Below, in pieces: positions 2,814-19,452 of a stretch of DNA of 20,000 bases. Each line of letters begins with the position of its first letter. Within the stretch, counting starts at the first letter, position 1. The notes beneath the pieces are model-generated. The model did no database searches. It saw nothing but the letters and a program-made list of their open reading frames with translations, and had not been told where the DNA came from. The stretch is from an uncultured virus (IMG/VR IMGVR_UViG_2061766007_000951) (lineage: Duplodnaviria > Heunggongvirae > Uroviricota > Caudoviricetes), in the IMG/VR virus record IMGVR_UViG_2061766007_000951; one strand, given 5' to 3'. The translations under genes and the position numbers were made by a program.

Positions 2814-2998
2814 GCAGCACCTCCGCGTTTTGCTCTGCCAACTCTTTTGTGGGCTTCCAGATAAGCCTCCAAATCCTTTATTAAGTAAAGGCGCAGGCTC
2901 TTCATTTTGATGTAGGGAATGTCCGACATAAAAAGGGTAGTGCGCCCGATTCCGAGAAGCTTGCATGCTTCGTTTACTCTTACGCAGATGCGTTCCAT
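2810..2998 (-). CDS. Excisionase-like (HTH_17/MerR-type) small DNA-binding protein
   Basis: 62 aa, VRVNEACKLLGIGRTTLF...IPYIKM...RLYLIKDLEAYL; GGAGGT SD upstream; first gene of the leftward early operon. Confidence 0.8.
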   Translation of the reverse strand: MERICVRVNEACKLLGIGRTTLFMSDIPYIKMKSLRLYLIKDLEAYLEAHKRVGRAKRGGAA

Positions 2999-3021
2999 TT
3001 TGTTTACCTCCGTTCAACAAA

Positions 3022-3083
3022 ATAAAAAAGAGTGGGAACCGACATCGTCGATTTAATCCGTTGCAGAACGCTGCCGGTTCCCA
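3022..3083 (-). terminator. Intrinsic terminator-like hairpin upstream of xis
   Basis: Minus-strand stem UGGGAACCGGCAGCGUU/GACGAUGUCGGUUCCCA (3033-3083; one mismatch, two G-U pairs) followed by CUCUUUUUUAUUUU. Confidence 0.6.
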
Positions 3084-3320
3084 TAGGATTTTATATGACT
3101 AACACTTTCGGGTAGGGACCTGTAAGTGGAAAGTCCAGAAGAGAGCCCGAGGCGGCGGAGATGGTTTTGGGTCTGCCGCCCCAGGCAATAACAGCTTTTT
3201 GGTGATGAGCCAGGCCCGCTGTCATAACCTCCATACTTCTCGGAAAGAAAGACTTACGGTAATCGTCCAACTCTCAATCCAAAGCCGTCCAGCGTATTTA
3301 CACGGCATGCGTAATGGCCT

Positions 3321-3373
3321 AAAAAAAAGAGCCCGTCAAACTGCACGCTTCGAGAAATGCAATCTAACAGGCT
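3321..3373 (-). terminator. Intrinsic terminator in the early leader
   Basis: 16-bp stem AGCCUGUUAGAUUGCA/UGCAGUUUGACGGGCU, fully paired on the minus strand with four G-U pairs, followed by CUUUUUUUU. Confidence 0.75.
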
Positions 3374-3390
3374 TTATGTCAAACCGTTTG

Positions 3391-3417
3391 TCCTGTCGGG
3401 GATTTGCGGTTATAACC
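3391..3417. repeat. Copy 1 of an inverted repeat shared with the integrase upstream region
   Basis: TCCTGTCGGGG-ATT-TGCGGTTATAACC; the reverse complement of 5268-5296 is TCCTGTCGGGG-TATTA-TGCGGTTATAACC. Confidence 0.85.
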
Positions 3418-3498
3418 AGATTAAAACCTCGAAGCTTGTCATTTCTAAGCAGTTTGTCAAGAACTGCTTAGAATCTGTTAGTATACTAACAGCGATAT

Positions 3499-3576
3499 GT
3501 ACGGTTCCCGTACTTCATGATTATAGAATATTACGAAAAGCGTACATTGTCAAGAAAAAAATTACAGAAACCGTAC
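3499..3576. promoter_or_regulatory. Three putative repressor operators overlapping a leftward sigma70 promoter
   Basis: GTACGGTTCCCGTAC (3499-3513), TTACGAAAAGCGTAC (3531-3545) and TTACAGAAACCGTAC (3562-3576). Minus-strand TTGACA (3553-3548)-N17-TATTCT (3530-3525). Confidence 0.7.
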
Positions 3577-3608
3577 TTTTTTTTCGATTTAAAAGTAAGG
3601 GGTTTTAT

Positions 3609-3950
3609 ATGGCATTTATGGATAATGTAGAAAGGGAATTAGAGAGTAGGGGCATAACTCAAAAAAAGCTGGCTGAAGATCTGGGCTTAAGAAGGCCCAC
3701 TTTATCAGATTGGAAAAAGAACGGAGCAATTCCTGCCGGAGACATCTGCATAAAAATTGCAGATTATCTCGGAGTTTCTGTTGAATGGCTTATAACAGGA
3801 AAAGAAAAGGAAGGAAACGGCCTTACACCAGAAGAGCGCCATTTATTGACACTCTGGGCACACCTCACTTCTGAACAGAAAGACACAATCAGCACCCTTT
3901 TAGAAAAATGGGAAGCCGATTATGTTCAGGCAAAAAAAGAGAAAGCTTAG
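3609..3950 (+). CDS. XRE-family HTH phage repressor (CI-like, 113 aa)
   Basis: RGITQKKLAEDLGLRRPTLSDWKKNG...KIADYLGVSVEWLITG. ATG 3609 follows AAGGGG; the gene is divergent from the early operon. No S24 peptidase domain is visible. Confidence 0.85.
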   Translation: MAFMDNVERELESRGITQKKLAEDLGLRRPTLSDWKKNGAIPAGDICIKIADYLGVSVEWLITGKEKEGNGLTPEERHLLTLWAHLTSEQKDTISTLLEKWEADYVQAKKEKA

Positions 3951-5233
3951 AAAGTCTGACAATCATCACATGGAGCGGGATGTAAAACAGCCCCGAAAAT
4001 ACGCTGCTGTGCTCCCATTATAAGCTTTGCTTCTTCCATTGTCTGATGCGCTGCATAGTGTTCAAGCATAACCTGTGATTTATGGCCCGTCTGACTTTGC
4101 AGAGCCTTCTGGTTTACCTTATCGGCCATGTAGGTAGTATAAAAATGACGCCAGGCGTGAAAAGTCATTTTCTTTGCAGTTTCCTTATCCATACCGGCCT
4201 TTATAAGCGCCTGCCTGAAGTACATCAAAAAATGTTTGCCGTCTGTCGGTCTGTCGGGTTTATATCCCCAGAAAATATAACCCGCTCCGTTTGGATACGG
4301 ATTAGTCTGTGCAAGCTCGCGCAGTTTTTCTATGATATAAGGGAAGGCAACATATACAGTGCGCTCCTCGGTGTTTTTGGTACACTTAAGCCCGTCTTTT
4401 TCACTCCAGGAGTGGCGCACGTGGATGCAGTCATCTTCCAGATCATCCTTTGTAAGTGCTAAAATTTCACCGCATCGCATACCGGTACACATTGCCAGCA
4501 TGGATGCAAGGCGTGAATATTCGTTGGTCCATTCTACACGGAAAACACTGCGAGCCATTTCCATTGTAAGTATTGCCCGCTTGTGATATTCAGCCTTATA
4601 CATAACCCAGCCTTTTGAAAGGTCTCTGGGCATAAGCTCGTTATTGTATGCCCATTTTAATGGAGTAAGGACTGCGCGTAAAATATGATTTTTTGTGTTG
4701 CCGCTCAATTCCATTTTATCAAGCCGGTCAAACTGCTTTTGAATATCTGCCCGCGTTAGTTCTCCCAGCTGTTTATTCTGCAAAAGCTCGGTCCAGTGCT
4801 TTCGGATAAACTGCTCGGAATTCATTGTGTGCTTTTTGTGGACTTTCTGCCCTTTGCGAAGCTTCTCGTTTAAGTAGCGTGATTTTTCAGGATTCCAGAA
4901 ATCGCACAGCCAGTCTAAAGCCGGAACATTGAGCTTCTGTACATCCGTCAGGCAATAGCCGGAAATAAAACCTTTGCGCTGGAAATCTTCAAGGAACTGC
5001 AGGACATCTTCTTTTGTGTAGGAAGCTTTTTTGATGCTATCATAGAATGAGAGTTTTTCAATATCCTGTTCGCGGTTGTTGTACATATTCCATGCAGTAC
5101 GCACAGCTCTGTTGTAGTTTGTTTCTTTTGTGGAAAGCCAGGAAAGATATTTACCGGTGCGCTCATTTCGGAAACGCACATAATAGTAGGGCGAGTTTGC
5201 CCTCGTAGTGAGAGAGAATGGAAGTTTTTGCAT
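3947..5233 (-). CDS. int: Tyrosine recombinase / phage integrase
   Basis: 428 aa with catalytic motifs TGMRCGEILAL (R), TFHAWRH (HxxR), TGH and LEHY (Y); adjacent to the tRNA-derived att site. Confidence 0.95.
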   Translation of the reverse strand: MQKLPFSLTTRANSPYYYVRFRNERTGKYLSWLSTKETNYNRAVRTAWNMYNNREQDIEKLSFYDSIKKASYTKEDVLQFLEDFQRKGFISGYCLTDVQKLNVPALDWLCDFWNPEKSRYLNEKLRKGQKVHKKHTMNSEQFIRKHWTELLQNKQLGELTRADIQKQFDRLDKMELSGNTKNHILRAVLTPLKWAYNNELMPRDLSKGWVMYKAEYHKRAILTMEMARSVFRVEWTNEYSRLASMLAMCTGMRCGEILALTKDDLEDDCIHVRHSWSEKDGLKCTKNTEERTVYVAFPYIIEKLRELAQTNPYPNGAGYIFWGYKPDRPTDGKHFLMYFRQALIKAGMDKETAKKMTFHAWRHFYTTYMADKVNQKALQSQTGHKSQVMLEHYAAHQTMEEAKLIMGAQQRIFGAVLHPAPCDDCQTF

Positions 5234-5267
5234 TTTGCAGGTCTCCTGTGTAGTTTAGTTTTTCACA

Positions 5268-5296
5268 GGTTATAACCGCATAATACCCCGACAGGA
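5268..5296. repeat. Copy 2 of the inverted repeat, in the integrase 5' region
   Basis: GGTTATAACCGCA-TAATA-CCCCGACAGGA, the inverted match to 3391-3417. Confidence 0.85.
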
Positions 5297-5306
5297 TGTA
5301 TTTTTA

Positions 5307-5592
5307 TGTACCACTTTGTGTACCACTTTTGATTTTTGCCCCGAAATGCTGTTTTTTACAAACCCCGCACTTGAGCTAAATCCTTATAATACAACGATTT
5401 AAGTGGTCTGATGCTGGGCGGGCTCGAACCGTCTACCTGCTGCTTAGAAGAAGGTCAAAAGGTAGTTCAAAACCGTTCACATCAATTCGGAAAACCTGCT
5501 AAGTCCTTATAATATAACGATTTATGGTTCATGTCAATTTTTAACCGTTCGCAACAGTTCAATTTTTATGTACCACTTTTATGTACCACTTT
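5307..5592. other. Phage attachment site attP (core plus arm sites)
   Basis: TGTACCACTTT occurs four times (5307-5317, 5319-5329, 5569-5579, 5582-5592). A 27-bp direct repeat (5375-5401 and 5498-5524) flanks a tRNA 3' fragment. Phage genes lie on both sides. Confidence 0.85.
5409..5450 (-). tRNA. 3' half of tRNA-Arg(TCT) (attP core; a fragment, not a full tRNA)
   Basis: CTTCTAA (anticodon loop) GCAGC AGGTA GACGG TTCGAGC CCGCC CAGCATC A. No 5' anticodon stem or D arm upstream. Confidence 0.8.
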
Positions 5593-5736
5593 TTCAGGCG
5601 GCTTTATTTCTTTATCAGATTCTTTAATCACCGTAAAAGAATACTGCGACGCCAGGACACAAGATTCTTCAACACCGTAATATACAGCGATGATTTTCTT
5701 TATGTCTGCCTTATTCAGAACTATTGCCTCTTTCAT
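5566..5736 (-). CDS. Small hypothetical protein (56 aa); not in the ORF track
   Basis: ATGA-coupled to the upstream stop, with a GGAG SD. Translation: MKEAIVLNKADIKKIIAVYYGVEESCVLASQYSFTVIKESDKEIKPPEKVVHKSGT. Confidence 0.6.
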   Translation of the reverse strand: MKEAIVLNKADIKKIIAVYYGVEESCVLASQYSFTVIKESDKEIKPPEKVVHKSGT

Positions 5737-5990
5737 TTTTCAAGCTCCGCAAGACGGGTCTGCAATTCGTTGATTCTGTCGCGGGCTTCCTGACGCTGGG
5801 CTGCAAGCTCTTCATAATCATACGGATCTTCTTCGCCTTTAAGTCTTGCTTCGTAGATTTTGACAACCTTCCAGTCGCCGATAGAACTAACTGGAGAATC
5901 TAAGGCCGAGACAAGTGAACCAATCTCCTGTCGGATGCTTTCTTCTTCTTCGCGTTTTTGTTCGAGTGTTTTTTCGTTCTTTGACTTCAT
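5733..5990 (-). CDS. Small coiled-coil protein, possible tail fibre assembly chaperone (85 aa)
   Basis: GGAGGT SD before ATG 5990. GDWKVVKIYEA...PYDYEELAAQRQEARDRINEL resembles small proteins encoded near phage tail fibre genes. Confidence 0.6.
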   Translation of the reverse strand: MKSKNEKTLEQKREEEESIRQEIGSLVSALDSPVSSIGDWKVVKIYEARLKGEEDPYDYEELAAQRQEARDRINELQTRLAELEK

Positions 5991-7032
5991 TTTGTTTACC
6001 TCCAAAAAGATATTTATATAATGCATCCAGATTCCGGACGCTCTTATATGCGTTGTATTTCATAATATTTCCGCGCCAACTTTTATACTGTTCTTCTATC
6101 TGCTGTTTAGTAATCCTATGTTTATGCAGAAGTACATAAAGCTTTTTAAGTTTTCGTCTCTGGCGGACTATGGACCTGTTTACCGGAATGATTACAACCT
6201 TGCCCGTTTCGGTTAATAGATAGCGCATCTGCAGAAAGATAAAACCTTTTTCAAGCTTCATAATTTGTGTTTTTTGGGAATTGATTTTAATACCAAGATT
6301 TTGGGAAATTACCTGATATTCTTTATAAAGCTTGCGCAGAAATTCCTTGCTCTCATGGATTATATATGTATCGTCCATATATCTGCCATAATATTTACAG
6401 CCTTTTACAATCTTGCAGAAGTTATCAAGTTCTGTCGGATAAAAGATGCCGGCGGTCTGGCTCAACTGACTGCCAATGCCTACTCCCTTATCGCCTTCAA
6501 AAGTTTGTACAAGATATTCCGTAAGCTTTATGACTTTTTCATCATCTATCTTTTCTTTGATTTTCTGCAGAAGTATGTCATGCGGAATGCTGTCAAAATA
6601 TTTTGAAAAATCTATTTTAAGCACCCAGCCTTTGTTTCCGTGTTTTCTGTAATAGCGCTGCAGATGTACTTTAAGTCTTTTTCGTGAAAACTCAATGCCT
6701 TTTCCCTTTACGCTGGCTCCGTTATCATATATTAGGTTTTTGAATAATACAGGATTCAAGACATAATCGCACAAAGCTCTCTGCAGCACTCTGTCGGAAA
6801 TGTGCATTGATTTTATATGACGCGGTTTTCCCCGTTCGTTTATATCAAACTCATAAAAAGCTTTCTGTCTGTAGGTGCCGTCGAGCAAAGCTTTGCGCAG
6901 TGTATTTATGTTCTGGAGCAGGTTTGATTCATAACGCTGCACGCTTTCTTTCCAATCAACACCCTTCTTGCAGTTCATAAATGAATTGTAGAGATTATTC
7001 AAATCTGTAAGGCGGTCAAAAAGCTCTGCCAT
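5887..7032 (-). CDS. DGR reverse transcriptase
   Basis: 381 aa with ERGKPRHI, DRVLQRAL, KIDFSKYFDSIPH, GVGIGSQLSQ (DGR-type SQ motif) and YGRYMDD; lies downstream of the TR. Confidence 0.95.
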   Translation of the reverse strand: MAELFDRLTDLNNLYNSFMNCKKGVDWKESVQRYESNLLQNINTLRKALLDGTYRQKAFYEFDINERGKPRHIKSMHISDRVLQRALCDYVLNPVLFKNLIYDNGASVKGKGIEFSRKRLKVHLQRYYRKHGNKGWVLKIDFSKYFDSIPHDILLQKIKEKIDDEKVIKLTEYLVQTFEGDKGVGIGSQLSQTAGIFYPTELDNFCKIVKGCKYYGRYMDDTYIIHESKEFLRKLYKEYQVISQNLGIKINSQKTQIMKLEKGFIFLQMRYLLTETGKVVIIPVNRSIVRQRRKLKKLYVLLHKHRITKQQIEEQYKSWRGNIMKYNAYKSVRNLDALYKYLFGGKQNEVKERKNTRTKTRRRRKHPTGDWFTCLGLRFSS

Positions 7033-7290
7033 ATATCCTCAAAAAAAACAACAGGCGTTTACAGCGGTACTGGTCATAACCAACCGCATCGCCTGCATTA
7101 TTCGCCTTTTACGGCAAGGTTGCAGTTTCCTTCGCATCACGCGCGGACTAAAAAGCCCTGATTGCGTATGATTCAAATCGGGGACGGACATAATTGTTCG
7201 TATTGCTCGCATTGTTGTAGTTCGCATTGCCGTTGTTGTTCACATTGGCGAAATTGGAACTCGACGCGACTTTATAAACTGCCGCCTTCT
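7033..7290 (-). ncRNA. Predicted DGR RNA (avd 3' end + TR + structured spacer)
   Basis: Spacer hairpins GGGCU/AGUCC, GCC/GGC and CAGGCG...CGCCUG (with an inner GCGGU/ACCGC). Long-range pairing of 7288-7276 with 7128-7116. Confidence 0.6.
7175..7270 (-). repeat. DGR template repeat (TR)
   Basis: 96 nt, rich in AAC/AAT codons; aligns ungapped to VR 7939-8034. Of 20 mismatches, 19 are at TR adenines and the other is the terminal base. Confidence 0.97.
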
Positions 7291-7844
7291 TTATCACGTT
7301 TTAATTTTTCTGCCATCTTCCTGCGCGACTTGTTGTCGCTCTGCCTCCAGCCCTTCAAAAGATGTTCTTCTTTCTCAAGGGAATCAAGCAGCTTGTCAAA
7401 ATAGTTGAGATTCTGTGGGAGCAGTCTCTCAATATATTCAAGCTCGTAGAACAGATGGCGCACTGCTGCAATGGCTTCATTCTGGCAGAATCTTCTCTGC
7501 TCCCACTCGGCCATTATAGCAGGATAAATACTGTTTGCGGCAACGATTCCTGATACCATTTTCCACATTGTCTCAATTATGATTTTGCGCTCGGCATCTA
7601 TAAACCATTGCGGATATTCGCAAACAAATTCTTTATTTAATCCTTTTCCGTGCTTTTCAAAAATGTCATTGATGATTTTTGTTTCTTCAGGCGTTGCATC
7701 TTTAATTGTATGCGCAATGTTTTTAGGATGCTTCTTTTCGCCAAAATCACGCATTAACCAGCGAGTTATCTCAAGCCTTATGTTTATGGCGTTTTTGTAA
7801 AACTCCATATCGCTTAATTTTCGCAGATTTTTAATTACTGACAT
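7272..7844 (-). CDS. avd: DGR accessory variability determinant (Avd-like four-helix bundle)
   Basis: MSVIKNLRKLSDMEFY...IVAANSIYP...RRFCQNEAI...EEHLLKGWRQSD; lies between target and TR. The AGGAG SD favours ATG 7844 over TTG 7850. Confidence 0.85.
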   Translation of the reverse strand: MSVIKNLRKLSDMEFYKNAINIRLEITRWLMRDFGEKKHPKNIAHTIKDATPEETKIINDIFEKHGKGLNKEFVCEYPQWFIDAERKIIIETMWKMVSGIVAANSIYPAIMAEWEQRRFCQNEAIAAVRHLFYELEYIERLLPQNLNYFDKLLDSLEKEEHLLKGWRQSDNKSRRKMAEKLKRDKEGGSL

Positions 7845-7869
7845 TTTCAACTCCTATAACGTAATCTGT

Positions 7870-7926
7870 CGCCCACCGCACCCACAAGGGGTGCGGATTA
7901 GGGCGCCGCTTCGGGCATTCGCCCTA
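7870..7926 (-). promoter_or_regulatory. GC-rich hairpins downstream of VR (DGR homing/target-recognition element)
   Basis: CCGCACCC-ACAAG-GGGTGCGG (7876-7896, 8-bp stem) and TAGGGCG...CGCCCTA (7899-7926). Confidence 0.75.
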
Positions 7927-9261
7927 CGCTCCGATTACGAAGCGGGGACGGACACAATAGCCCGCATAGCTCGCAATGTCGCAGGCCGCAAAGCCGTTGT
8001 TGCTCACACCGGCGAAAAGGGAACTCGACGCGACATCGCGCAGCCAGTAATACGACTTTCTGTTATTGATTGCCATTGTCGAGAAGGCAAACAGCGGCAG
8101 ACGTGTCTTTCCAGTTCCTGTGTCGTATCCTGAAGAACTCCAGACAACAGAGCCGTAAACTTCAACTTCTGTCATAAGACAAGCCTGTACGTTGTTCCAT
8201 GCCCATGAAGAAGATGCGCCTTTTTCAGAATGTAAGCGGTTTTCGTAGGTTGTGGTCACGACAGTCGATACCAGCTCATTACAGGTTTTAAGATGACTTC
8301 CAAATTCCGCATAAAGCTGCTGGTTTATGGTTGCGCCGCTTGCAGTTGAGCCGGAAGAAACAACCGAGCCCAGAGTAGACGATGCCATTTCGGAACCCCA
8401 ATAACCGCCGCTTGTCGTGTTGCTGGAGTTCATTCGTTTTCGTCCAAAATGATTTTTTTCTGTAGGATCTGCGCCTTTTCCCGGGATAAGAACCAGATGA
8501 TGTTTTCCACTTACAGGGTTTAAGCAGTCGTTGTCGCCTTCCGGGAAGGTTGAACCGTTGCCCATGAGAGTGTCAATGCCGGCAATGGTGACCCACGCTG
8601 TTCCGGTTTCTGCATACTGACTGTCCTGATTTGGCGCAGAAATTGCCCGCGACATCTGGAAGTAGTCTCCGACATAAATATCTTCTAAAACAGAATAGCC
8701 GTCGGTACCGTTCAGACGCTTCCACAAAGTGCCGTCGCTGTAATATTCTGTGATGTTCTTACCAAGTACACCGTTTATAAAGCGCGGTACATTGTGGTCC
8801 TGCTCCATAAAGGCATTTTCTTCAAGCAGAAGCCATTTCTGGTGGCGCACACTCGAAACTGTAATGTCGATGTATTTAAGGTGCACCCAGCTGTTTGGTC
8901 TGCAGGCCCCTACAAGATTGCCCGAAAGTGAAGCAATAGGAAAGGTGCCCGTTCCTGCAAAGTTTAAGGTTGGAGCTGTGTTTGTGTTTCCGTTTACAAA
9001 GAAAACTAAAACCTCGCGCCCCGTAAGTAAAGTAAAGTCAGGACAGCTCTCTGCAGAAAGCGTTGCCTCCTTGCCCTCTGTTGCGGCAGCTGTCGTACAG
9101 ATGGCAATAGGAACCGACTGCAGCACCGCTTTTGAAACACCCTTGTCTGCATCATCTGCAGTGCCGGGCTTGTGCCTTGTCTGAAACATATCACTGTCGC
9201 TCAAACTAAGCAGCGACAACCGCTCCGACGATGTAGCACCTTTGAATCTTGTGTTTGACAT
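7924..9261 (-). CDS. DGR target: putative tail fibre / receptor-binding protein with a C-terminal CLec-like variable domain
   Basis: 445 aa ending YWLRDVASSSLFAGVSNNGFAACDIASYAGYCVRPRFVIGA; directly follows the tail tip gene. Confidence 0.85.
   Translation of the reverse strand: MSNTRFKGATSSERLSLLSLSDSDMFQTRHKPGTADDADKGVSKAVLQSVPIAICTTAAATEGKEATLSAESCPDFTLLTGREVLVFFVNGNTNTAPTLNFAGTGTFPIASLSGNLVGACRPNSWVHLKYIDITVSSVRHQKWLLLEENAFMEQDHNVPRFINGVLGKNITEYYSDGTLWKRLNGTDGYSVLEDIYVGDYFQMSRAISAPNQDSQYAETGTAWVTIAGIDTLMGNGSTFPEGDNDCLNPVSGKHHLVLIPGKGADPTEKNHFGRKRMNSSNTTSGGYWGSEMASSTLGSVVSSGSTASGATINQQLYAEFGSHLKTCNELVSTVVTTTYENRLHSEKGASSSWAWNNVQACLMTEVEVYGSVVWSSSGYDTGTGKTRLPLFAFSTMAINNRKSYYWLRDVASSSLFAGVSNNGFAACDIASYAGYCVRPRFVIGA
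7939..8034 (-). repeat. DGR variable repeat (VR) with a 3' IMH-like end
   Basis: Matches the TR with adenine-specific substitutions; ends GTCCGTCCCCGCTTC versus TR GTCCGTCCCCGATTT. Confidence 0.97.
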
Positions 9262-9282: not shown

Positions 9283-12200
9283 TTATTCCCATCCTGATGT
9301 AAATATTTTCAAATTGAAAACTTTATAATGGCGTTGATATCCACTTGTTAAGCTATTTGTTATTGTTATTATTTTTTCATCATCGATTGTCTGTTGATAC
9401 AACAAAGAATCTCCTGCTAATTTTGTCAATAACAAAGAGCTTCTATCCTGACATTCTATTCTACCAAGCCAAGCATCTAATTGATTGTTGTAAGCATAAA
9501 AATATACAGCTTTTTTATCATAAACAGGACAGATTACTCTGAATGGATCAGAGCCATACGATTTCACTGTATCACCTTCAAAAACAACAAGAAGCCCTGC
9601 GATTGTCTCTATATCATCCAGTTCAACAGTGCTGAAAGAAGAACTAGACGAAAACAAACCCTCTGCAATAAGTTGGCCTAAACCAGCGGCAAATCTTCCC
9701 TGATTTGCTTCAATAGTTCCATCTGCAGAAATATTAAAACCATAATGAGAACCTTGTGCCCAATCTTCGCTATGTATACTTCCTCCTTCTGGTACTATAA
9801 TTTCATTTGCAAAAAGCTTGTTTATAAAAGCCTCATTAGCAACAAGATTTTCAATAAAAGCCTCATTAGCAACAAGCCTATCCGTAAAAATCTGATTACT
9901 TGTAAGATGATCCAAATAAGCATACGCCCTTGAGTTGTTCTTCTGAAGGTCTGCCTGGGCAATGTTGAGAATATCACCCATAGCAATGTTATTATGTCCG
10001 ATGTCTGTATCTTCTTCCCACTGCCATTCTTTGGCGGTACCTATAAACTTGTAGAGCCTGCCCGGTAAGAATTCGCCGGTAATAGACAGGCTGGATTCTG
10101 TCTGACTGCCGCTCCATACAAAATAATCGTTGATGGAAAGCAAAGCCGGAATATCCTCTACTGCAGAAATAGGACCTAAGAAAGCGCCCTCTGCAAAAGT
10201 GTAATAAGTAAACCATAAGTCGTAAGAATAAGGTGTAGAAGAAATCTGCTGGTCGATGTAGTTGTTGTTGTTCTGGTCCTGATATTCGTTGCCTTCTTCA
10301 TCCTCGTATTGTTCGTAAGCAACAACAGGGCTGTAATAAACCGGAATCTTAAAGCGTCCAGGTTTTACGATATTTCCCTGTCTTATAAAGAAAATAATCT
10401 TATGCCCGATAACTTCATACTCCCAGCCGGCAGGAAGATTTATCTCACCGATAGAAAAATCGCGATCTTCAAGGCCCTGTTTTACGCTTATTGTTGTTTC
10501 TATGCGCTGCGGTAAAACTGCGCGTCCGTTTTCGTCTGTATTGACTACGGCATTAAGAACATCTGCAGAAACATCTACAGGAGCAACAGCGCCATAAAGT
10601 TCTACAAGTTCGTTCTGCAGCGTGTTTATCTGTTCGCGCAGGCGGTTCAGATCGTTTAAGGTTGCGTTGCGGTTGTTTGCCTGTGGCTTCGTGAGGTTTG
10701 TCTTATAGGTTGGAATTGTGCCGTACTGGTAAATTGCTTCGTTGTAATCTTTAAGGGTTAAAGTCATTCCGCCGTTCTGGTTTGGCTCTATACCGTAGAT
10801 TTTCATTGTGTTTGTAATCTTGGTAAAGTGTCCGCCGTTATCCAGAAGTCCAAAAGACAGATGGTTGCCGATTTCCGGCTTTGCATGATAAGCAGAAACA
10901 GTAAGAGGCGTTGTAAAGATAAGCGAGCGGGTCTGTGTTTCATCTTCTCCCAGATCTCCCTCAACTTCTGCACTGAAAAGCGCAAATCCGTAGTCGTTTG
11001 TGCCCTGAATGATTACGCCGTAGCGCTCGTTTTCGTCAAACTCTACGACATCCTGAATTGTAATCTTTGTTATCTGATTCTGGTCGTTATAAGTGATGCT
11101 TGAAATGATGCTTGAGCGCAAGCCCTGCAAAAGCTGTGGAACCTGCAGCAATACAGTAGAGTAGAGCGGATAATAGTCGCCTTCGCTTCCTACGTCTACT
11201 TTAATTTCACGTGGCTGGAGCTGGGACTGTCTAAGCATTCGTTGTGCAATTTTATAAGCATGGTTATATTCTGTAATATAATCAAACGCAGCTTCGGTCA
11301 CCGTGTCGCTCTGGTAGTCATAAGAACCGCCGTCGAGCATGGAATAGAATGTATCTATCTGCCAGCTGTAGCGGTTTGTAAAGGTAATTTTCATTCCGTC
11401 AGGCTTACGCTGCATGCTTTTTGAATAGGTCATGCTTGCAATGTTTTCGGCATTCAGAAGGGCAACAGGTGTTGTCTCTTCTTTGTCTATGCACACTTCG
11501 AGCAGGCCTTCCTGATTTATGATAAGGGTTGAATTACAGATAGACAAAAGCTTTTCGATAAGGTTTTTCTTGCTTATGGATTCTGTTAAGATGCCGTCGC
11601 AATTAAAGCCTTCTGTATCGCAGTAGTCGTACAATGCCCCGAAAGATGAAAGGTCTATTTCATCCATGTCAAACTTGCTGGGCTCATGTACAGAGCTTGT
11701 AAGGATTTCCAAAATCCAAGATGCAATATTTCTTGTAGGTGTTTTTGATTCGCTCCAGTCGGTACCGTCCCAGGTGCGTGCATATCCCTGCGACATACAG
11801 TGCAATTCGTCGAGCATTCCTTCTGTGTTGTCGTTTGCAACAATTCTGTAGCCTACGCGTGTACATTTGTTAAAAAGCTCTTCTTCTACAAGGCTGCAGG
11901 CAACAAGAGAATTTGCGCTGGACTTTGCAGCATCATAACAGAAAGTCTGATACCAGAGGAGCATACAGTCCTCCTGGCTGTTCTTTTCCATTTTTGGAGT
12001 TGCCTTTTCAAGCTTTATGGAAATTGTCTTGCCATAGCTTTCTGCAGCTGTAAAAGTCTTTTCGGCAACAAAGCGGATTGTGTGGTTTACATTTCGTGTA
12101 ATAACATTGTTTTCTGTAAAGTAGAAAAGATGCCAGGTATTGCCGCCGTCATTACTCCAGTAAGGATTTACGGTGACGGAGCGAGCCTCCCATGCTTCTG

Positions 12201-13056
12201 CTTCTGTGTTATACTGTCGCAATGAGTTGAACTGAATACAAACCTGAATCTTCATTGCGTTATCGGCTGCCTGTACGATAACAGGCTCTGCATCCTGTCC
12301 GAATTCATGCTTTACTTCACTTCCGGCATAAGTAGAACTTACCTTCTGGTTAAAGCCCGGTAAAGTCATATTTACACCCGGCTGTCTTACTTCTACTTTG
12401 TTTGCCTGTCTTGAATCGTAATAAAGGGAATCTGAATCGAAATTCTGCTCACCGCTTATGCCGTTTGCATTGCTTGCAATACGTTCGTTTCCGATAAACA
12501 TTTCGGTAATTTTCTGTGAACCGTAGCCGGCAGAAAAGGCAGCGTTATAAAAACTGAATATTCCGTCCTCTCCGCTTTCTGAACCGTTTTGAATAGAGAA
12601 AAATCCGTCTGTAAGGTTGTAAGGCGTATTGTAAACCGAGCCCATAACAAACTGCACGGGATTTCCAAGCGCCTTTTTATTTTTGGCACCGCGTACAAAA
12701 GGAAGCTGCTGGACCTGCTGAGCAAGGTTCTGCGCGTTCCTCTGTGCCTTTTCCATTTCTTCCTGCGCTTCTTTAGACTTCTGGTCTGCATAAGCTGCAA
12801 CGCCGACTGCCGTACCGACAGCAATAACAGTTGCCGTAATTGCAATAATAGCAATGGTTGTTGCCGCCTTTGGAACCTTGCGCACATAAAGAACATCATC
12901 CGGCTGGACTATATAAGAACCGTCTATGCGGTTGCCGGCTTTAAGGCACAATGAATGAGAAAAATTGATGTCAGGAAAAATATCTTTAAGCCTTCCGTTG
13001 GCGGTAATTTCTTCATGCTTTGCGTTTAATGTGTTGTAGACGTTAATTGTTCCCAT
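9283..13056 (-). CDS. Tail tip / host specificity protein (lambda J-like)
   Basis: 1257 aa; follows the NlpC/P60 gene; contains TPTRNIASWILEIL and YDYCDTEGFNCDG segments typical of J-like tip proteins. Confidence 0.75.
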   Translation of the reverse strand: MGTINVYNTLNAKHEEITANGRLKDIFPDINFSHSLCLKAGNRIDGSYIVQPDDVLYVRKVPKAATTIAIIAITATVIAVGTAVGVAAYADQKSKEAQEEMEKAQRNAQNLAQQVQQLPFVRGAKNKKALGNPVQFVMGSVYNTPYNLTDGFFSIQNGSESGEDGIFSFYNAAFSAGYGSQKITEMFIGNERIASNANGISGEQNFDSDSLYYDSRQANKVEVRQPGVNMTLPGFNQKVSSTYAGSEVKHEFGQDAEPVIVQAADNAMKIQVCIQFNSLRQYNTEAEAWEARSVTVNPYWSNDGGNTWHLFYFTENNVITRNVNHTIRFVAEKTFTAAESYGKTISIKLEKATPKMEKNSQEDCMLLWYQTFCYDAAKSSANSLVACSLVEEELFNKCTRVGYRIVANDNTEGMLDELHCMSQGYARTWDGTDWSESKTPTRNIASWILEILTSSVHEPSKFDMDEIDLSSFGALYDYCDTEGFNCDGILTESISKKNLIEKLLSICNSTLIINQEGLLEVCIDKEETTPVALLNAENIASMTYSKSMQRKPDGMKITFTNRYSWQIDTFYSMLDGGSYDYQSDTVTEAAFDYITEYNHAYKIAQRMLRQSQLQPREIKVDVGSEGDYYPLYSTVLLQVPQLLQGLRSSIISSITYNDQNQITKITIQDVVEFDENERYGVIIQGTNDYGFALFSAEVEGDLGEDETQTRSLIFTTPLTVSAYHAKPEIGNHLSFGLLDNGGHFTKITNTMKIYGIEPNQNGGMTLTLKDYNEAIYQYGTIPTYKTNLTKPQANNRNATLNDLNRLREQINTLQNELVELYGAVAPVDVSADVLNAVVNTDENGRAVLPQRIETTISVKQGLEDRDFSIGEINLPAGWEYEVIGHKIIFFIRQGNIVKPGRFKIPVYYSPVVAYEQYEDEEGNEYQDQNNNNYIDQQISSTPYSYDLWFTYYTFAEGAFLGPISAVEDIPALLSINDYFVWSGSQTESSLSITGEFLPGRLYKFIGTAKEWQWEEDTDIGHNNIAMGDILNIAQADLQKNNSRAYAYLDHLTSNQIFTDRLVANEAFIENLVANEAFINKLFANEIIVPEGGSIHSEDWAQGSHYGFNISADGTIEANQGRFAAGLGQLIAEGLFSSSSSFSTVELDDIETIAGLLVVFEGDTVKSYGSDPFRVICPVYDKKAVYFYAYNNQLDAWLGRIECQDRSSLLLTKLAGDSLLYQQTIDDEKIITITNSLTSGYQRHYKVFNLKIFTSGWE

Positions 13057-13411
13057 TTTGGACCTCGTATAAGTTTTGAATAATCTTTGGATTGATTAAG
13101 GAAATGCGCACTCCCTGATTTGTTGTTGCATGAATCATCCGCTTGTTATCAAGGGCAAAGGCAATATGCAGCTCGCTGTTGCTGTGCATTTCGATTATCG
13201 TTCCTGTTTTAATAATGTCAGTTTTTTTGACGTTGAGGGTCGGTGCTTTTTCACCGGCAAGTTTAATGTCGTGGTTTTCGTAGATTACATCATCAAGATG
13301 ATTTCCCAGCCGCTTTTCACATTCAATTACAAGTCCGTAGCAGTCAAACCCGTTCCGGTCCCTTCCGTTTTCTTTATAAGGAACTCCTATAAGGTCTGAA
13401 ACATCTATCAT
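13043..13411 (-). CDS. NlpC/P60-family tail assembly protein (lambda K-like)
   Basis: LIGVPYKENGRD..GFDCYGLV...HIAF...MIHAT, carrying the Cys-His-His motif. Confidence 0.85.
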   Translation of the reverse strand: MIDVSDLIGVPYKENGRDRNGFDCYGLVIECEKRLGNHLDDVIYENHDIKLAGEKAPTLNVKKTDIIKTGTIIEMHSNSELHIAFALDNKRMIHATTNQGVRISLINPKIIQNLYEVQNGNN

Positions 13412-13860
13412 GCGCCGCCTCGGTTTGAATCCGTATCGTATTTGTAAACATTAAAAACCATGTTCAGGCGCCCGTCGTTTTCAAGATTGAATTCCAGCTG
13501 GTTGTTGTCTCCGAGTGAAACAGATCCGTAGAAATGGCGGTAAGACTTGAGCTCTTCAACACTTCCCCCGTTCAATATACCTATGACTTCCATTGAGTAG
13601 CGGCAGTCTGCATTTTCTACCCATTCAAAAACATCGGGATTATCGACAATAGAAATTGAAAGGTTTCCGGCTTCACCCTGATTGTTTGGTTTTGTGTAAT
13701 CAAAACTGGATGCTTTGTAAGTCTGCTCTTCAAAAACTACATCTTCGTTATTGTTTACAAAGCGCAGTGTTCCGGCGGTTGGATGAGAAAGCTTTATAAG
13801 GTACTGTTTGGCGTAGTTGCCGCCTTCAAACAAAAGGCGGTAGATTTGTGATGCTGTCAT
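13408..13860 (-). CDS. Minor tail protein (lambda L / DUF1833-like position)
   Basis: LIKLSHP...LRFVNNNEDV...YKASSFDY...LSISIVDN; synteny between the M-like and K-like genes. Confidence 0.6.
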   Translation of the reverse strand: MTASQIYRLLFEGGNYAKQYLIKLSHPTAGTLRFVNNNEDVVFEEQTYKASSFDYTKPNNQGEAGNLSISIVDNPDVFEWVENADCRYSMEVIGILNGGSVEELKSYRHFYGSVSLGDNNQLEFNLENDGRLNMVFNVYKYDTDSNRGGA

Positions 13861-14199
13861 TTACACTTCCTCTATGTTCATTGAAAGTACGCGTGTCGTC
13901 TGGTCCGTATCTTCGGGCGACGGAATATCTGAAAATCTGTAAACACCGTTTCCAAGGCCGGAGCATGTAAAACAGCCGGATGTCTGTCCGAGTACATCAT
14001 TGAACCAGGTCCAGAAAAGAGCAAGTTCTGAATGAGTAAAGAAAAGCCGACACTTCCATTTCATGAGCTTTTTTGTGTTTACCTGCCAGGCAACGCGGCG
14101 GCCCGACATATAAGAGATTTCTTCTGTATTTGCAATAGGCTGATTATTTGCCCCGAAAAACTTTGAATTAACGCCAGTAGGCCATGTATGTACAGTCAT
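13861..14199 (-). CDS. Distal tail protein (lambda M-like)
   Basis: 112 aa directly after the tape measure gene; N-terminal WP, FWTWFND segment and C-terminal IEEV. Confidence 0.55.
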   Translation of the reverse strand: MTVHTWPTGVNSKFFGANNQPIANTEEISYMSGRRVAWQVNTKKLMKWKCRLFFTHSELALFWTWFNDVLGQTSGCFTCSGLGNGVYRFSDIPSPEDTDQTTRVLSMNIEEV

Positions 14200-14208
14200 T
14201 GCTTCCTC

Positions 14209-16595
14209 CTAAAAATAACTTATACCGCTGTTTTTATTGTTTCCTACTGCCATTGACTGCGAGTAGTCTCCGTTTTCCATCTGGGCGCGCACAATATCGC
14301 GGATGATAATCTGCAGCCCTTTTGGAGACATCTGTGCACTTGCACTCACTTTGTCGGATGCAGTATTTTCTATGGTCACCGGCATGTTTACAGTTGCGCC
14401 TCCGCGTCCGCCTCCGTTGGCAGCTTCCCAGAGTGCACGCTGTTGCTGTGCGTTCAAAATCATTTCGCCGGTGCGTGCATGAACATAAGTGTTATCGCCT
14501 CCAGCTGTTGCTCCATTCAAACCGCCAACAACACCACCCTGTGCAAAGGCCGGAGGTTTTGGGCGCGATGCGGTTATAGATGCAATTTGTACTGCGCCAG
14601 CGGCTGCAACAAGCGCACCTGTGATAATTCCGGCAATTCCGCCCTGTGCAATAGCCTTAGAGATACCTTCTGCAATGTTTGCAGTTGCCTGCAGGATGCT
14701 TACATTCCATTCCCACATTTTGACTTTGTATTCTTCCTGGGCGGCTTTGCGTTCTATCTGCTTTTTCTTTTCGCAGNNNNNNNNNNCTCTTCGTTGCGCT
14801 CCTGTTCGTTATTCTGACGGGCAAGAGCGGTGATGTCTTTTGAAATGCCGGCAAACTGTTCAATATAACTCTGTATTTGAGAAATAGTGTCTGCAATAGC
14901 ATCTTTCTGTTCCTGCAAAGCTTTCTTCTGTGCTTCAAGAGATTTCTGCTTTGCTGCATCTTCTTCTTCTGCAATCTTTTCGTTTATGTTCAGAAGAGCA
15001 AAACGCAGGCGTTCTTTTATTTCAATTTCTTCATCTGTAAGCTCACCCTTAGAATCAAGGTAAGTCATGTAATCCATGAGAGCTTCTTTCTGCATGGCAA
15101 GAGTTTCCTCTTCTGTAATCTGCCATGCTTCCATAAGGTCCTTAGAATGCTTCCAGACGTCCTCGGTTGTTTTTGCCTGTTCTGCCCACTTTTCAATCTG
15201 TGCAAGCTGTCCTGTCTCACCGGCCCATATACCTGTTGATGTAAGAGAGCGGTCAAAAGCCGGATCGGAATACATGTTTATATAAGCCTGTGTTGCAGCG
15301 TTCAACAAAAGCTGTGCTTCTGTCTCTTCGCTGATTTCTTCTCCAAGAGTGCGGCGGTTGTTTATCTGTTCCTGTGTTTTGCGTAAAGTTTCTGCATAAT
15401 CTTCGCGCAGTTTGTTTCTTCGCTCAAGCAGGGCGTTTGCTTCTGCTTCTTTTTTTGCCTGTTCTTCTGCTGCTTCTGCTTCAAGCTGTGCGGCTGTTTT
15501 CTGTGCATTTATCTTAAGCTGGAGCTCGCGTCGTTCTTCACGTCTTGCAGTCAGGAGCTTGCTCTGTTCAGATATTTCATTCTGGATGCGCTCGATTTCT
15601 TTATCGACATCAAAAGTACCGCCGGATGTTCTTTTAAGCTGAAGCTTTGCAGCATCCGTCATATTCTGATAACTGTGAAGAGTTTCGTAGTAGTTGTCTA
15701 TCTTTTCCTGCAGTCCGTCTATTTCTTTTGTGAGTGTTTCAATAGTCTGCTTTGCCGGGTCTGTGTTTGCTTCTACAGCTTCTTCGTATTCACGCTTAGC
15801 TTTCTTTGCATCGGCCCAGCCCTGGATAAGCTCTGTAAAGAACCGGCGCATAGGTGCAAGCTTCTTTTCAAAAGTTGCTCCGACTTCTTCTTTGTAGTCA
15901 GACATTGCGTTTTTGAGCTGTTCTGTAGAACCTGTTGCCTTTGCAGTTTCTTCTGACATGCCTTTGAACTTTTCGGCAACAATATCAATGGCTTTTCCGC
16001 TTTCAAGCTCTTCTTTTGTAAGTCCTTTTAATTCTGCTATCTGGTTTCCAAGCTGTCCTGTTGAACCGGAAAAAGTTTTATTGAGCGCGGTCACTGCAGA
16101 ATCAAGCGACATCATGCCGGATGCAGAAACATCAAGCGCAGCGCTCATTATGTTCTGAATTTCTTCCTGTGTACGTCCTGCGCTTGCAAGCTGTGCCATC
16201 ATCGGCAGAAGCTGTTCGTCTCCAACTGTAGAAATACGCTGCAACTGTGAGGCGTAGTTCTTAAGCTGCATAACAGAGCCGTCATCAAGATAAGGATTGT
16301 TTCTTGCAGCAACCTCAAGCTGTTTTTCGGCGGTTGCCTGTACGCGGTATAATTCTGTTGTTTCTTTTATAGCTTCGTTTGCCTTTTTAATAGCGGTCAC
16401 CGCAACACCGACAGCTGCGCCTACCGCTCCAAAAGATTTTACAGCGCCCGTTATGGCACCGTTAAGACGCTTTAAGCCTGAAAGGTTCTGATTATTGTTT
16501 TTCGAGAATTCATTTATCTTTTTGCTTACTTTATCTAAGCCCGTTTCGGCATCTTTTGTATCCGATGTTATTTTTATGGTTGCCTTTTTACTCAT
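14209..16595 (-). CDS. Tail tape measure protein (interrupted by an assembly gap at 14777-14786)
   Basis: Long Ala/Lys/Glu-rich helical ORF. After the Ns the frame CEKKKQIERKAAQEEYKVKMWEWNV runs into the 14209..14718 ORF, which has the FAQGGVV...GEMILNAQQQ motif of TMP C-termini. Confidence 0.85.
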
Positions 16596-16640
16596 CGTCT
16601 GTTCCTTGCTTTATAATAAAGTCAGTTAAGAAGAAAAGAG

Positions 16641-17219
16641 TTATTTTTCAAAAAGGCTGTTGAAGGCATCCAGATCTTGTTGTGTTTTTTCGTCCTGTTC
16701 GGTTGGAAGCTCCCATGCTTTGCGGAGTTTAGACATCTGCTTGCCGTATTCGGTTTTTGTTTCTCCGTCCCAGCAACGGTATGACATGACTTCATTAAGC
16801 TTTGTGTTGTGAAGTCCTGAAAGCAGGGCAAGAAACTGATGCCAGTGCATCTGTTTATAGTGTACCCCGTCAGGCTTTTCTAAAAGGTCAATTTTATACT
16901 GCTCCATAAAAGATGCATATATAAGCTGGGAATCCAAAAAGTAGTCAAGAACCTTTTCTGTGCCTGCGCGCTCGCCGGTGTTTCGTGGAAGCTCGCACTC
17001 CGGCTGATAGAATTTCATTAAAAGCTCAAAGCATTCTTTCTGCTCTTCTGGAGGAACTTTGTCTATATAGATGTGCTGTATCTGGTTTAATGTGGCGTCT
17101 TTTGTGGCAATTATACGAGAAAAACCCAGCCACACTCTCCAGTCGGTCTGTATATGATAAATATTGCCGGCTGCAGTCTGGATGCAGTCGGCAAGTTTAT
17201 TGAGAAACAAATCAATCAT
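16641..17219 (-). CDS. Bacteriophage Gp15-family tail assembly chaperone
   Basis: IQTDWRVWL...LDYFLDSQLIYASFMEQYKIDL...MHWHQFLALLSGL...EVMSYR; immediately upstream of the tape measure gene. Confidence 0.8.
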   Translation of the reverse strand: MIDLFLNKLADCIQTAAGNIYHIQTDWRVWLGFSRIIATKDATLNQIQHIYIDKVPPEEQKECFELLMKFYQPECELPRNTGERAGTEKVLDYFLDSQLIYASFMEQYKIDLLEKPDGVHYKQMHWHQFLALLSGLHNTKLNEVMSYRCWDGETKTEYGKQMSKLRKAWELPTEQDEKTQQDLDAFNSLFEK

Positions 17220-17749
17220 TATGTTGCAGAATAAGTTCCTTCTGTAAATTCAATGTCTCCGTCATCAACGGTAATATAACCGATTTCCGGTTCATCATTG
17301 AAAGCAACATCGAAAGTGATTGTTTCATCAACAGAGTTTAAGTCGTTGATAGTCAAAGTACAGTCTGCTTTCCAGGCAAGGAAAACAGCGTGCTCTTCGC
17401 CTTCTTCCGGTTCGTCGCATGGTTCCTGGAAGAAAACAAGACAAAGCTCTGCTTTTGCTTCTTCGCCAACTTTCTGATTTGCAAACTTTCCGAAAATGAA
17501 GTCGTAGTCATCTTCGCCTTTGTGCATTACAAGAGGTGTGCTGAAAGATGGAACATAGCGCAGAAGGTCTATTGTCGGATTTTCATCTGCAATGTAGTCG
17601 CGCTCTTCTGTCTGCGGATTCATGTTCAAATCAAAAGCTGTTGTCTTTTTGATTCTGGTCCATACAGGATTTTCTTTGTCTACAAGTCCTGTGTCTGAAT
17701 CAATGGCTGTATTGATAAACGGTGCAATCTGATACTTCTTAACACTCAT
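17219..17749 (-). CDS. Major tail tube protein, paralog 2 (acidic)
   Basis: 176 aa with the NPQTEERDYIADE pattern; co-linear with 17766..18278. Confidence 0.7.
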   Translation of the reverse strand: MSVKKYQIAPFINTAIDSDTGLVDKENPVWTRIKKTTAFDLNMNPQTEERDYIADENPTIDLLRYVPSFSTPLVMHKGEDDYDFIFGKFANQKVGEEAKAELCLVFFQEPCDEPEEGEEHAVFLAWKADCTLTINDLNSVDETITFDVAFNDEPEIGYITVDDGDIEFTEGTYSAT

Positions 17750-17765
17750 TTTCTGTCTCCTCTAA

Positions 17766-18278
17766 TTATGAATAAGTACCTTTTGTAAAGGTAATTGAGT
17801 TTCCGGCAACTGTTGCATAACCGACATCTGTTTTTCCGTTGAAGCTCACATCAAAAGTGATTGTTTCATCAACAGAGTTCAGATCGTTGATTGTGATTGA
17901 ACATGGAGCTTTCCAAGCCAGGAAGTGAGTAGGACTTGCAGCGCCATCAACAGGTTCCTGATAGAAAACAAGCATCACTTCGGCCTTTGCCTTTTCTCCA
18001 ACTGCAAGATTAAAGAATTTACCAAAAATAAATTCATAATCTGCTTCGCCTTTGTACATTACAAGAGGTGTGTTGAAAGTAGGGGCATAGCGCAACAAAT
18101 CAATAGTCGGATTTTTGTCGCTTATAAAATCACGCTCCTCTGTCTGTGGATTCATGTTCAGATCAAAGGATGTTGTCTTTTTGATTCTGGTCCATGTTGG
18201 GCTTGCTGTATTAACTAACCCGCTGGAATTGACGGCAGTGTTCAGAAATGGTGCGATTTGGTATTTTTTTACACTCAT
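17766..18278 (-). CDS. Major tail tube protein, paralog 1
   Basis: 170 aa, beta-rich; lies between the tail terminator and the chaperone. Confidence 0.7.
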   Translation of the reverse strand: MSVKKYQIAPFLNTAVNSSGLVNTASPTWTRIKKTTSFDLNMNPQTEERDFISDKNPTIDLLRYAPTFNTPLVMYKGEADYEFIFGKFFNLAVGEKAKAEVMLVFYQEPVDGAASPTHFLAWKAPCSITINDLNSVDETITFDVSFNGKTDVGYATVAGNSITFTKGTYS

Positions 18279-18324
18279 TATAAACTCCTTTTATAAGAAT
18301 TACTAATAATATTGTCAGATGACT

Positions 18325-18786: not shown

Positions 18787-18788
18787 TT

Positions 18789-19229: not shown

Positions 19230-19452
19230 CTACAATTCCTTCTACAGCTTCGCCCCAGCTTTCCCATTCCTGCACCAGACTGTCATAATAAACGATTAAA
19301 AGTGCATAGTCTTTGAGAGTTTCCGGCGGAGTAAGTTTCTGTCGTTCAGGCTTTGGCGGTAAAACTGGTTTATTTTGTTTTTGCTTTGTTGTTCTGCACC
19401 CTGTCATTATTGGCAGCAATAACAGCAGCAACAATATCGTTAATTTCTTCAT
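19204..19452 (-). CDS. Putative o-spanin (Rz1-like lipoprotein)
   Basis: MKK plus a hydrophobic stretch ending in MTGC (lipobox), then Pro-rich PVLPPKP; overlaps the i-spanin 3' end in another frame. Confidence 0.7.
   Translation of the reverse strand: MKKLTILLLLLLLPIMTGCRTTKQKQNKPVLPPKPERQKLTPPETLKDYALLIVYYDSLVQEWESWGEAVEGIVDEISYDTK

Follow-up and report, generated by a model that had tools for sequence, protein, structure and literature searches.

Co-varying complementarity between an early leader RNA and the integrase leader of a rumen Treponema phage suggests control of integrase by RNA

The 20,000-nucleotide (nt) stretch of uncultured-virus DNA analyzed here (IMG/VR IMGVR_UViG_2061766007_000951), referred to as the window, is, judging by its sequence, part of a siphovirus-like temperate phage of rumen Treponema. 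Five of the seven related genome loci were Treponema or Treponemataceae metagenome-assembled genomes, and the integrase on one genome contig (L049) was 100% identical to that of the window over Int residues 175-428. The window phage is denoted W, and related loci carry numbers with the prefix L (such as L001). The subject of this work is a pair of inverted copies, A and B, of which copy B lies in the 5' leader of the integrase gene (int) and copy A in a predicted early leader RNA (ELR) beyond the repressor gene. Along the minus strand, the genes are ordered as tail genes, a diversity-generating retroelement (DGR), attP, int, the repressor (on the opposite strand) and early genes. The repressor gene is convergent with int, the stop codons of both overlapping, and the genes to the right of the repressor are all on the minus strand, with no rightward early operon. 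The features on which the argument turns are listed below.

3391 to 3417, minus strand: copy A, with block 1' at 3391-3401 and block 2' at 3405-3417
5268 to 5296, minus strand: copy B, in the int 5' leader, with block 1 at 5286-5296 and block 2 at 5268-5280
3947 to 5233, minus strand: tyrosine integrase, 428 amino acids (PF00589 at 5.6e-17; phrog_1)
3609 to 3950, plus strand: CI-like helix-turn-helix (HTH) repressor, 113 amino acids (PF01381, PF07022; phrog_8/4/3)
3430 to 3608: dense operator/promoter region
3321 to 3518, minus strand: ELR, about 198 nt (fold -64.3 kcal/mol, z = -4.86)
Beyond the operator region along the minus strand: early genes, including those for PcfK- and PcfJ-like proteins

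A preliminary description of this DNA had reported the segments 3391-3417 and 5268-5296 as inverted copies that share two exact blocks, one of 11 and one of 13 nt, and the repeat listing confirmed this. The block 1 pair (repeat I16, 3391-3401 / 5286-5296) spans 11 nt at 100% complementarity, and repeat I3 (3405-3427 / 5258-5280; 23 nt, 83%) holds the exact 13-mer of block 2 (3405-3417 / 5268-5280). When the 120 nt preceding int were locally aligned with the reverse complement of the downstream region, the score was 46, compared with 27 in the direct orientation and 22 for the best of 20 shuffles; the inverted pair is not due to chance. In some lineages the similarity between the copies reaches about 50 nt. 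When the 20-kb window was searched with up to 2 mismatches, each block had two exact copies and no 1-mismatch copy was listed, and with only two copies the blocks do not constitute a regulon-like site. The location of both segments in minus-strand transcription units was also supported.

Relatives of the locus came from IMG/VR (9 loci), metagenome contigs (38 loci) and genome contigs (7 loci), and conservation was counted over the 40 loci having a complete int and sufficient flank; blastn of 2900-5800 against the phage collection gave no match. A matched pair was present at the same two positions in 33 of these 40 loci, with copy B 17-78 nt upstream of the int ATG and copy A 477-611 nt past the int stop in most loci (970 and 1289 nt in two). 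As for the other seven, the sequence ended short of the expected position in L027 and L046, no pair was found in L052 and L053, L050 had only a weak pair from which the GC block was missing, and L026 carried a mismatched pair, described below. The remaining one, L013 (L013:1-5994), has the DGR region inverted directly after int and lacks both a repressor and a copy A; a rearrangement, a defect of the element or a misassembly may lie behind this.

Alignment-free cognate/non-cognate permutation tests and a hand-set structure were used for the comparisons that follow, because the helix arms were out of register in the MAFFT alignments, for which RNAalifold returned 0 pairs (int leaders) and 2 pairs (ELR). 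About a dozen versions of the GC-rich block 1 were seen, all of them variants of CCCG(Y)CGG with differing flanks, and within each genome both copies carry one version, L026 being the sole exception. Over 15 lineage representatives, the cognate B-versus-A scores summed to 512 against 290 +/- 26 for permuted partners (0/20000), and the cognate was the best partner in 12 of the 15 lineages, the three exceptions sharing one cluster of near-identical block 1. The copies, whose covariation in related phages had been proposed earlier as a check, are thus co-conserved and co-varying. Between W and L001, for example, 3 of the 11 positions of block 1 have changed, the same ones in copy A as in copy B, in surroundings (about 200 nt around copy A and about 180 nt around copy B) that are otherwise nearly identical.

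Complementarity to the int 5' leader has therefore been kept by matched changes across lineages, with one exception. This is L026 (2925-3009 and 4811-4959), a natural recombinant that has an L003-type block 1 in its int leader and an L002-type block 1 in its leader RNA, so that the two copies have just 8 nt in common. The existence of such a mismatched pair, as well as the local hairpin formed by each copy, would suit a scenario in which the repeat is a functionless relic of an inverted duplication, each copy being kept for its own hairpin. This scenario is very improbable, as independent local constraint cannot keep loop bases equal between the copies yet different between lineages.

The matched change could also come about if a protein, be it Int, a phage regulator that escaped detection or a factor of the host, recognized both copies as one DNA site, kept alike by gene conversion or selection. 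The CII sites of lambda, for example, serve pI and pRE. The site lies upstream of both convergent lysogeny genes, with the copies facing inward to int and the repressor; copy B adjoins arm-type repeats, and block 1 is a quasi-palindrome (CCG-N-CGG type) that is perfectly identical between the copies, with no wobble. On the other side, neither the repressor type nor Int tracks block 1, though W and L001 differ at 3 of its 11 positions. L003 and L004 share block 1 and have different repressors, L007, L008 and L009 share block 1 among three repressor types, L001 and L009 have similar repressors and different block 1, and the HTH/operator modules of W and L001 are unrelated. Binding of the repressor to block 1 was rejected on these grounds, the repressor types being shuffled independently of it. 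Int differs between W and L001 at 5 of 428 residues (76 of 1287 nt), and the other W/L001 proteins, compared within 9-kb loci, are 92-100% alike except for the DGR target and likewise do not track block 1.

Further points bear on a protein site. No third copy was found in the 20 kb, copy A is separated from the repressor start by 190 nt plus the entire operator region, and its flanks are explained by the terminator and pseudoknot of the opposite-strand RNA described below. Moreover, the identity stops sharply at block 1 in every lineage, where conversion tracts should vary. The palindrome GGTTATAACC, which had been offered in the preliminary description as a shared protein site, proved to be a peculiarity of the W/L001 lineage that relatives do not conserve. 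We consider a protein site unlikely in view of these results. The repressor/operator modules themselves are swapped as cassettes among otherwise close phages (L001-L009, between int and copy A), with at least four repressor N-terminal types among nine loci and exchange points inside the repressor gene and near palindrome 1.

Two other sources of block 1 variation were discarded. A link to the att core or the tRNA T-arm was rejected, as core types do not follow block 1: W, L001, L002 and L005 have one att core type and four block 1 variants, and a second core type, found in 11 of the 19 loci searched (8 lineage representatives), occurs with several block 1 variants. The DGR was dropped as the source of change since its template and variable repeats lie elsewhere and adenines are found at only 2 of the 3 changes.

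Copy A lies within the ELR, which comprises an operator dyad, palindrome 1, hairpin 2, X1, hairpin 4 and terminator t1; these are listed here together with the promoter-like site and the dyads of the switch region.

3525 to 3553, minus strand: leftward early promoter-like site TTGACA-17-TATTCT, 10/12 matches, with a predicted start near 3518
About 3499 to 3513, 3531 to 3545 and 3562 to 3576: three dyads GTACG-N5-CGTAC of the switch region
3476 to 3493: palindrome 1, perfect, 18 bp
3443 to 3473: hairpin 2, with a 12-bp stem and TTGACA in the loop
3428 to 3435, minus strand: X1 (GCUUCGAG), 5' half of a pseudoknot helix, also repeat I21
3416 to 3378, minus strand: hairpin 4, with copy A at its apex
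3321 to 3373, minus strand: intrinsic terminator t1, a 17-bp stem (3373-3357 / 3346-3330) followed by U8 at 3328-3321
3347 to 3354, minus strand: X2 (CUCGAAGC), in the apical loop of t1, pairing with X1

The -35 of the promoter-like site and the T-run upstream of it are invariant between W and L001 despite different operators, L001 having ACTCTC..GAGAGT-type dyads instead of the GTACG-N5-CGTAC dyads. The arms of hairpin 2 change in matched fashion among relatives and its loop retains TTGACA, which was considered as a second -35 and rejected, no -10 being present at 16-18 nt in any lineage. RNA folding showed the terminator at 3321-3373 to be real, a 17-bp hairpin with U8; its 10-nt loop had hidden it from a simple terminator scan. 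In all 20 loci inspected, a long hairpin with a T6-T9 tract behind it starts 12-20 nt past block 1', in the outward sense. In a 17-sequence alignment with the hand-set structure, 76.8% of the t1 cells were paired, compared with 26-57% when the partners were slid; both sides change in 11 of 16 pairs, with a covariation score of 0.343 against 0.219 (0/500). Several of these pairs are mostly G-U, which would read A-C on the opposite strand, so that the signal is strand-specific.

Watson-Crick pairing of X1 with X2 extends over 8 bp in 13 of 16 lineages and over at least 6 bp in 15 of them, the helix being built from no fewer than 10 different sequences, and the cognate sum was 124 against 81.8 +/- 4.3 for permuted partners (0/20000). 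The X1:X2 helix forms a loop-linker pseudoknot around hairpin 4, which has block 1' at its apex. Support for the lower stem of this hairpin was weak (371/20000) when G-U pairs were counted and absent when the count was restricted to Watson-Crick pairs, and an antiterminator formed by copy A with either t1 arm was rejected, as there was no cognate excess in the permutation test. A covariance model of the 3' 142 positions of the ELR found 26 loci at E <= 2.3e-10. It matched 2 of the 5 genomes underlying the related loci and, among 151 genomes of the G002 family, the centre genome G002 alone. Rfam 15 gave nothing at gathering score in the region and nothing relevant at E <= 5 in 2900-5700.

Altogether, it is very likely that a short leader RNA with a conserved terminator is made. 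For the early RNA of about 200 nt predicted in the preliminary description, the promoter-like site was found and the conserved terminator was supported; a discrete species with these ends is a predicted one. The covariance model also matched the antisense of the int leader weakly (E 8.6e-6 to 0.9), from which the copies appear to be old inverted duplicates; this match and the similarity of about 50 nt in some lineages also speak for a protein site.

The arrangement of the ELR also bears on the idea, raised earlier, of an invertible int-repressor segment bounded by the repeats, and on that of repeats serving as recombination sites. The repeats do flank a 1.9-kb segment with a recombinase gene, and perfect identity over a short core suits crossover sites. 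The ELR was found on the int strand in all 30 loci with an ELR match, however, and this single orientation speaks against inversion. Additionally, X1 and X2 flank block 1' and covary, so the uninverted order appears to be selected. Inversion is hence highly improbable.

Contigs from four RNA-library runs (X17 to X20), for which strand and true ends are not given and DNA carry-over is possible, covered parts of both regions. Those of three studies cover parts of 3000-3500. An X18 contig of the L001 type, 179 nt long, spans 3322-3489 plus 11 further letters (to about 3500) and ends inside the U-run without a loose end, close to the predicted ELR, and an X19 contig covers 3357 to about 3507. In the fourth study, an X17 contig covers 5230-5407, which is the whole int leader including copy B. 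The lack of X18-X20 cover over the repressor and int is uninterpretable, as these samples carry another immunity module (loose ends at 3489) and the absence of a contig proves nothing. These observations give weak support to the transcription of both regions.

Adjacent to the ELR, a second terminator-like hairpin with a T-run was seen at 3094-3022 on the minus strand, and even distant relatives have kept the nucleotide sequence of a segment at about 3140-3090 (..CUUCUGGACUUUCC..GGUCCC..GUCAUAUAAAA). A 47-amino-acid open reading frame (ORF) at 3091-3234 had no family match; the stretch is much shorter in the L003 type, where the ORF is perhaps not conserved. RNA-library contigs of three studies cover parts of 3022-3320, and this segment may be a second non-coding RNA or leader on the minus strand.

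The partner of the ELR is the int leader, whose ribosome-binding region carries a hairpin over the Shine-Dalgarno (SD) sequence and follows the phage attachment site.

5243 to 5269, minus strand: int SD-sequestering hairpin, pairing CCUGUG (5269-5264) with CACAGG (5250-5245), z = -2.46
5247 to 5243, minus strand: int SD, AGGAG
5300 to 5600: attP region
5300 to 5329, minus strand: two arm-type repeats (..TGGTACA..), repeat D1, directly upstream of copy B and conserved in relatives
5375 to 5401 and 5498 to 5524: 27-nt direct repeat
5409 to 5450, minus strand: att core, 42 bp, with the same sequence as the 3' part of a tRNA gene of the host (anticodon loop UCU)
5562 to 5592: second pair of arm-type repeats

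Two anti-SD segments had been proposed for the int leader. Pairing of CCUGUG (5269-5264) with the SD region was indeed present in the minimum-energy fold, and that of UCCUGU (5296-5291) was absent from it, this segment forming a small hairpin of its own. The SD hairpin is present in most relatives, with 11-14 bp, different sequences and often a bulged G, and its upstream arm adjoins copy B. Within copy B, block 1 forms a small GC hairpin and block 2 runs into the anti-SD, ending ..AACCUG.

The assignment of 5409-5450 as the att core follows from contigs with tRNA-like flanks, which match only this interval; the cores of relatives come in at least three variants, all of one tRNA type. The arm-type repeats, whose two pairs flank the core, are presumed Int arm sites. 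The tRNA part of the core is oriented the same way as int, and a minus-strand terminator scan from the tRNA core to int found none. Since no terminator intervenes, transcription of the tRNA gene should run into int in a lysogen, which gives a reason for a translational lock. A minus-strand scan from the int stop to t1 also found no terminator, so a read-through int transcript would carry copy A in its 3' end, where pairing in cis would be possible.

Net binding energies from partition functions, with both RNAs unfolded, were -14.8 to -32.7 kcal/mol for cognate ELR and int leader, compared with averages of -5 to -14 kcal/mol for non-cognate ones, and swapping partners between W and L001 cost 9-14 kcal/mol. 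With the predicted duplex imposed, opening the ribosome site became cheaper in all 16 lineages, the mean cost going down from 11.2 to 4.8 kcal/mol. The joint change of the two leaders in many relatives suggests, at the level of sequence, that an RNA and not a protein switches integrase on. An RNA acting on an RNA is the most economical account of matched, fast-changing complementarity between two same-strand RNAs. That the ELR pairs with the int leader and thereby raises int translation is the explanation that we put forward, tentatively and with confidence that falls a little short of even. The inverted pair and its covariation, the SD hairpin, the t1 and X1:X2 helices of the ELR and a favorable binding energy are results; that two such RNAs are made with the ends given here, come together and activate int is what we infer.

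Several results weigh against this proposal. On free cofolding of leader and ELR, the unpaired probability of the W SD rose from 0.25 to 0.33, which equals the non-cognate mean; accessibility of the SD did not change in most lineages, and in several the 13-14-bp SD hairpin stayed intact in the cofolded dimer. The early RNA of W reaches no further than the first two bases of the operative anti-SD, CCUGUG. There was no wobble bias between the copies (14 int-sense versus 13 transitions, with 49 transversions), and the int-sense energy advantage was small (17 of 21, mean -2.7 kcal/mol, in rows that are not independent). In all matched lineages the two copies of block 1 agree perfectly and admit no G-U, which also fits a DNA site or gene conversion. 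The L026 pair binds at -11.1 kcal/mol, within the non-cognate range. Finally, one X19 and one X20 contig bridge t1, and the RNA evidence as a whole consists of contigs, from which strand and true ends cannot be read and which may reflect DNA carry-over.

The unmasking of the SD by pairing, as first suggested, may thus occur, but in these models it was seen only when the full duplex was imposed and not in free cofolding. Pairing may instead be real with an outcome other than activation. The duplex of 11+13 bp, longer in relatives, could be an RNase III site at which the int message is destroyed or processed, the int leader could titrate the ELR, or 5'-3' pairing in cis within a long int transcript could govern its stability. 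The logic would be that of sib-like retroregulation. The same pairing energy and covariation are consistent with such outcomes, as are the SD hairpin that stays closed on cofolding in many lineages and the lack of a scanned terminator between the int stop and t1, which would make copy A the 3' part of a read-through int RNA. We regard them as quite unlikely, given that block 2 consistently reaches the anti-SD arm (..AACCUG), and does so fully in the L003 type, as an activator needs, and that something has to open an SD hairpin of 11-14 bp whose default state is off.

Under activation of int by the ELR, the following sequence of events may be proposed. The leftward early promoter would make a structured ELR of about 200 nt (3518 to 3321), ended by t1 and held by X1:X2. 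In a lysogen, the reconstituted tRNA gene would read into int, so that the int leader is probably always transcribed, with int silenced at translation by the SD hairpin. Once the repressor leaves the early promoter, on infection or induction, the ELR would accumulate and dock on the int leader through complementary hairpin apices, namely the copy A apex and the GC hairpin of copy B. The duplex would then extend into the anti-SD arm and make the ribosome site cheaper to open, and integrase would be made only while the early operon is on. The core of this scheme, a small RNA that unmasks int and couples it to induction without CII, had been proposed in the preliminary description; the complementary pair, its covariation, the leader RNA with its terminator and the SD hairpin found support, and the opening of the SD was seen only with the duplex imposed. 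The pseudoknot, the block 1 hairpin, the tRNA read-through context and the mismatched recombinant L026 are additions to that description.

A broader proposition, which we hold to be doubtful, is that the ELR represents a new family of pseudoknotted phage riboregulators that replaces CII- or Xis-type control, with an int that is always transcribed but locked and with private block 1 specificity groups. If true, related prophages in one cell could not activate each other's integrase, an RNA counterpart of heteroimmunity.

Upstream of attP, the minus strand carries the DGR and the structural genes.

5887 to 9261, minus strand: DGR
5887 to 7032, minus strand: DGR reverse transcriptase
7176 to 7270 (template repeat) and 7940 to 8034 (variable repeat): DGR repeats, 95 nt, 80% alike
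7272 to 7850, minus strand: DGR Avd-like gene
9283 to 19690, minus strand: tail and structural genes (Phage_Gp15, NlpC/P60)

The differences between the DGR repeats fall at plus-strand T, which is coding-strand A, and the variable repeat is at the 3' end of a 445-amino-acid ORF (7924-9261) that is 79% identical between W and L001. The cassette is a complete one. At the extreme end of the window, 19964-20000 on the minus strand, the Rfam abiF RNA motif (RF03085) was matched at full length with 55.4 bits, against a gathering score of 37.

Spirochaete phages are, to our knowledge, almost unstudied, and a literature search on Treponema phages, at the level of abstracts, returned no description of pairing between an ELR and int. 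Likewise, the wider literature searched, largely as abstracts, held no description of a small RNA or leader RNA that controls a phage integrase in this way. The link between integrase and the choice of lysis or lysogeny has been worked out in detail in lambda and a small number of other phages, where it runs through proteins and sib. The sequence evidence presented here points instead to an RNA-only link, the ELR and the int leader having co-evolved base for base in many lineages. If true, integrase would be added to the targets of phage riboregulators, and the silence of int in a prophage behind a strong tRNA promoter would be explained. The phages would also offer naturally orthogonal RNA-target pairs, such as those of W and L001, which differ by three bases. 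The ELR, with its terminator and loop-linker pseudoknot, is in addition a new structured RNA for which Rfam has no family.

Among known systems, the P4 CI RNA and the P1/P7 c4 RNA are small RNAs from the leader of an early or immunity operon that pair with complementary boxes in phage transcripts, and related phages differ by matched changes of RNA and target. These RNAs repress their own operon, by termination or translation block, and confer immunity. Their boxes lie in the same early operon, which pairing shuts off, whereas here the int leader holds the only second exact copy in the window, and activation is what is predicted. In lambda, CII acting at pI and sib retroregulation by RNase III tie Int output to the early decision, sib being an RNA duplex that forms only in some transcripts. 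Here, in contrast, no link to a CII-like protein was found, and the partners lie 1.9 kb apart in two transcription units on the same side of att. A shared site of the lambda CII pI/pRE type is also at odds with a sequence that follows neither the repressor, nor Int, nor the W/L001 proteins compared.

The nutL and nutR boxB elements of lambda, two inverted hairpin copies that flank the immunity region and differ between related phages, are similar in layout, with one copy lying between an early promoter and the first terminator. They bind N, and each of the two divergent operons reads its copy in the same sense; here, copy B is read as the complement, because it is on the same strand as the RNA of copy A. 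P4 CI, P1 c4, sib and nut thus each lack at least one defining feature of the present case.

Going by the part of the published account (PMC4825925) consulted, the closest documented analogue, and by analogy only, would be IsrK of the Gifsy-1 prophage. IsrK has no sequence or Rfam relation to the ELR, and in that part of the account it acts on a read-through form of its own transcript (orf45-anrP) and not on integrase, with no separate inverted copy 1.9 kb away. Of the features of an IsrK-like (anti-antisense) trans-acting sRNA that activates translation by base pairing, the ELR has the intrinsic terminator and a complementarity to the target leader kept up by matched changes, and its target has a ribosome site closed by a hairpin with the upstream arm next to the pairing site. 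What the two have in common, as far as that part of the account describes IsrK, is that each is a prophage RNA ending at its own intrinsic terminator.

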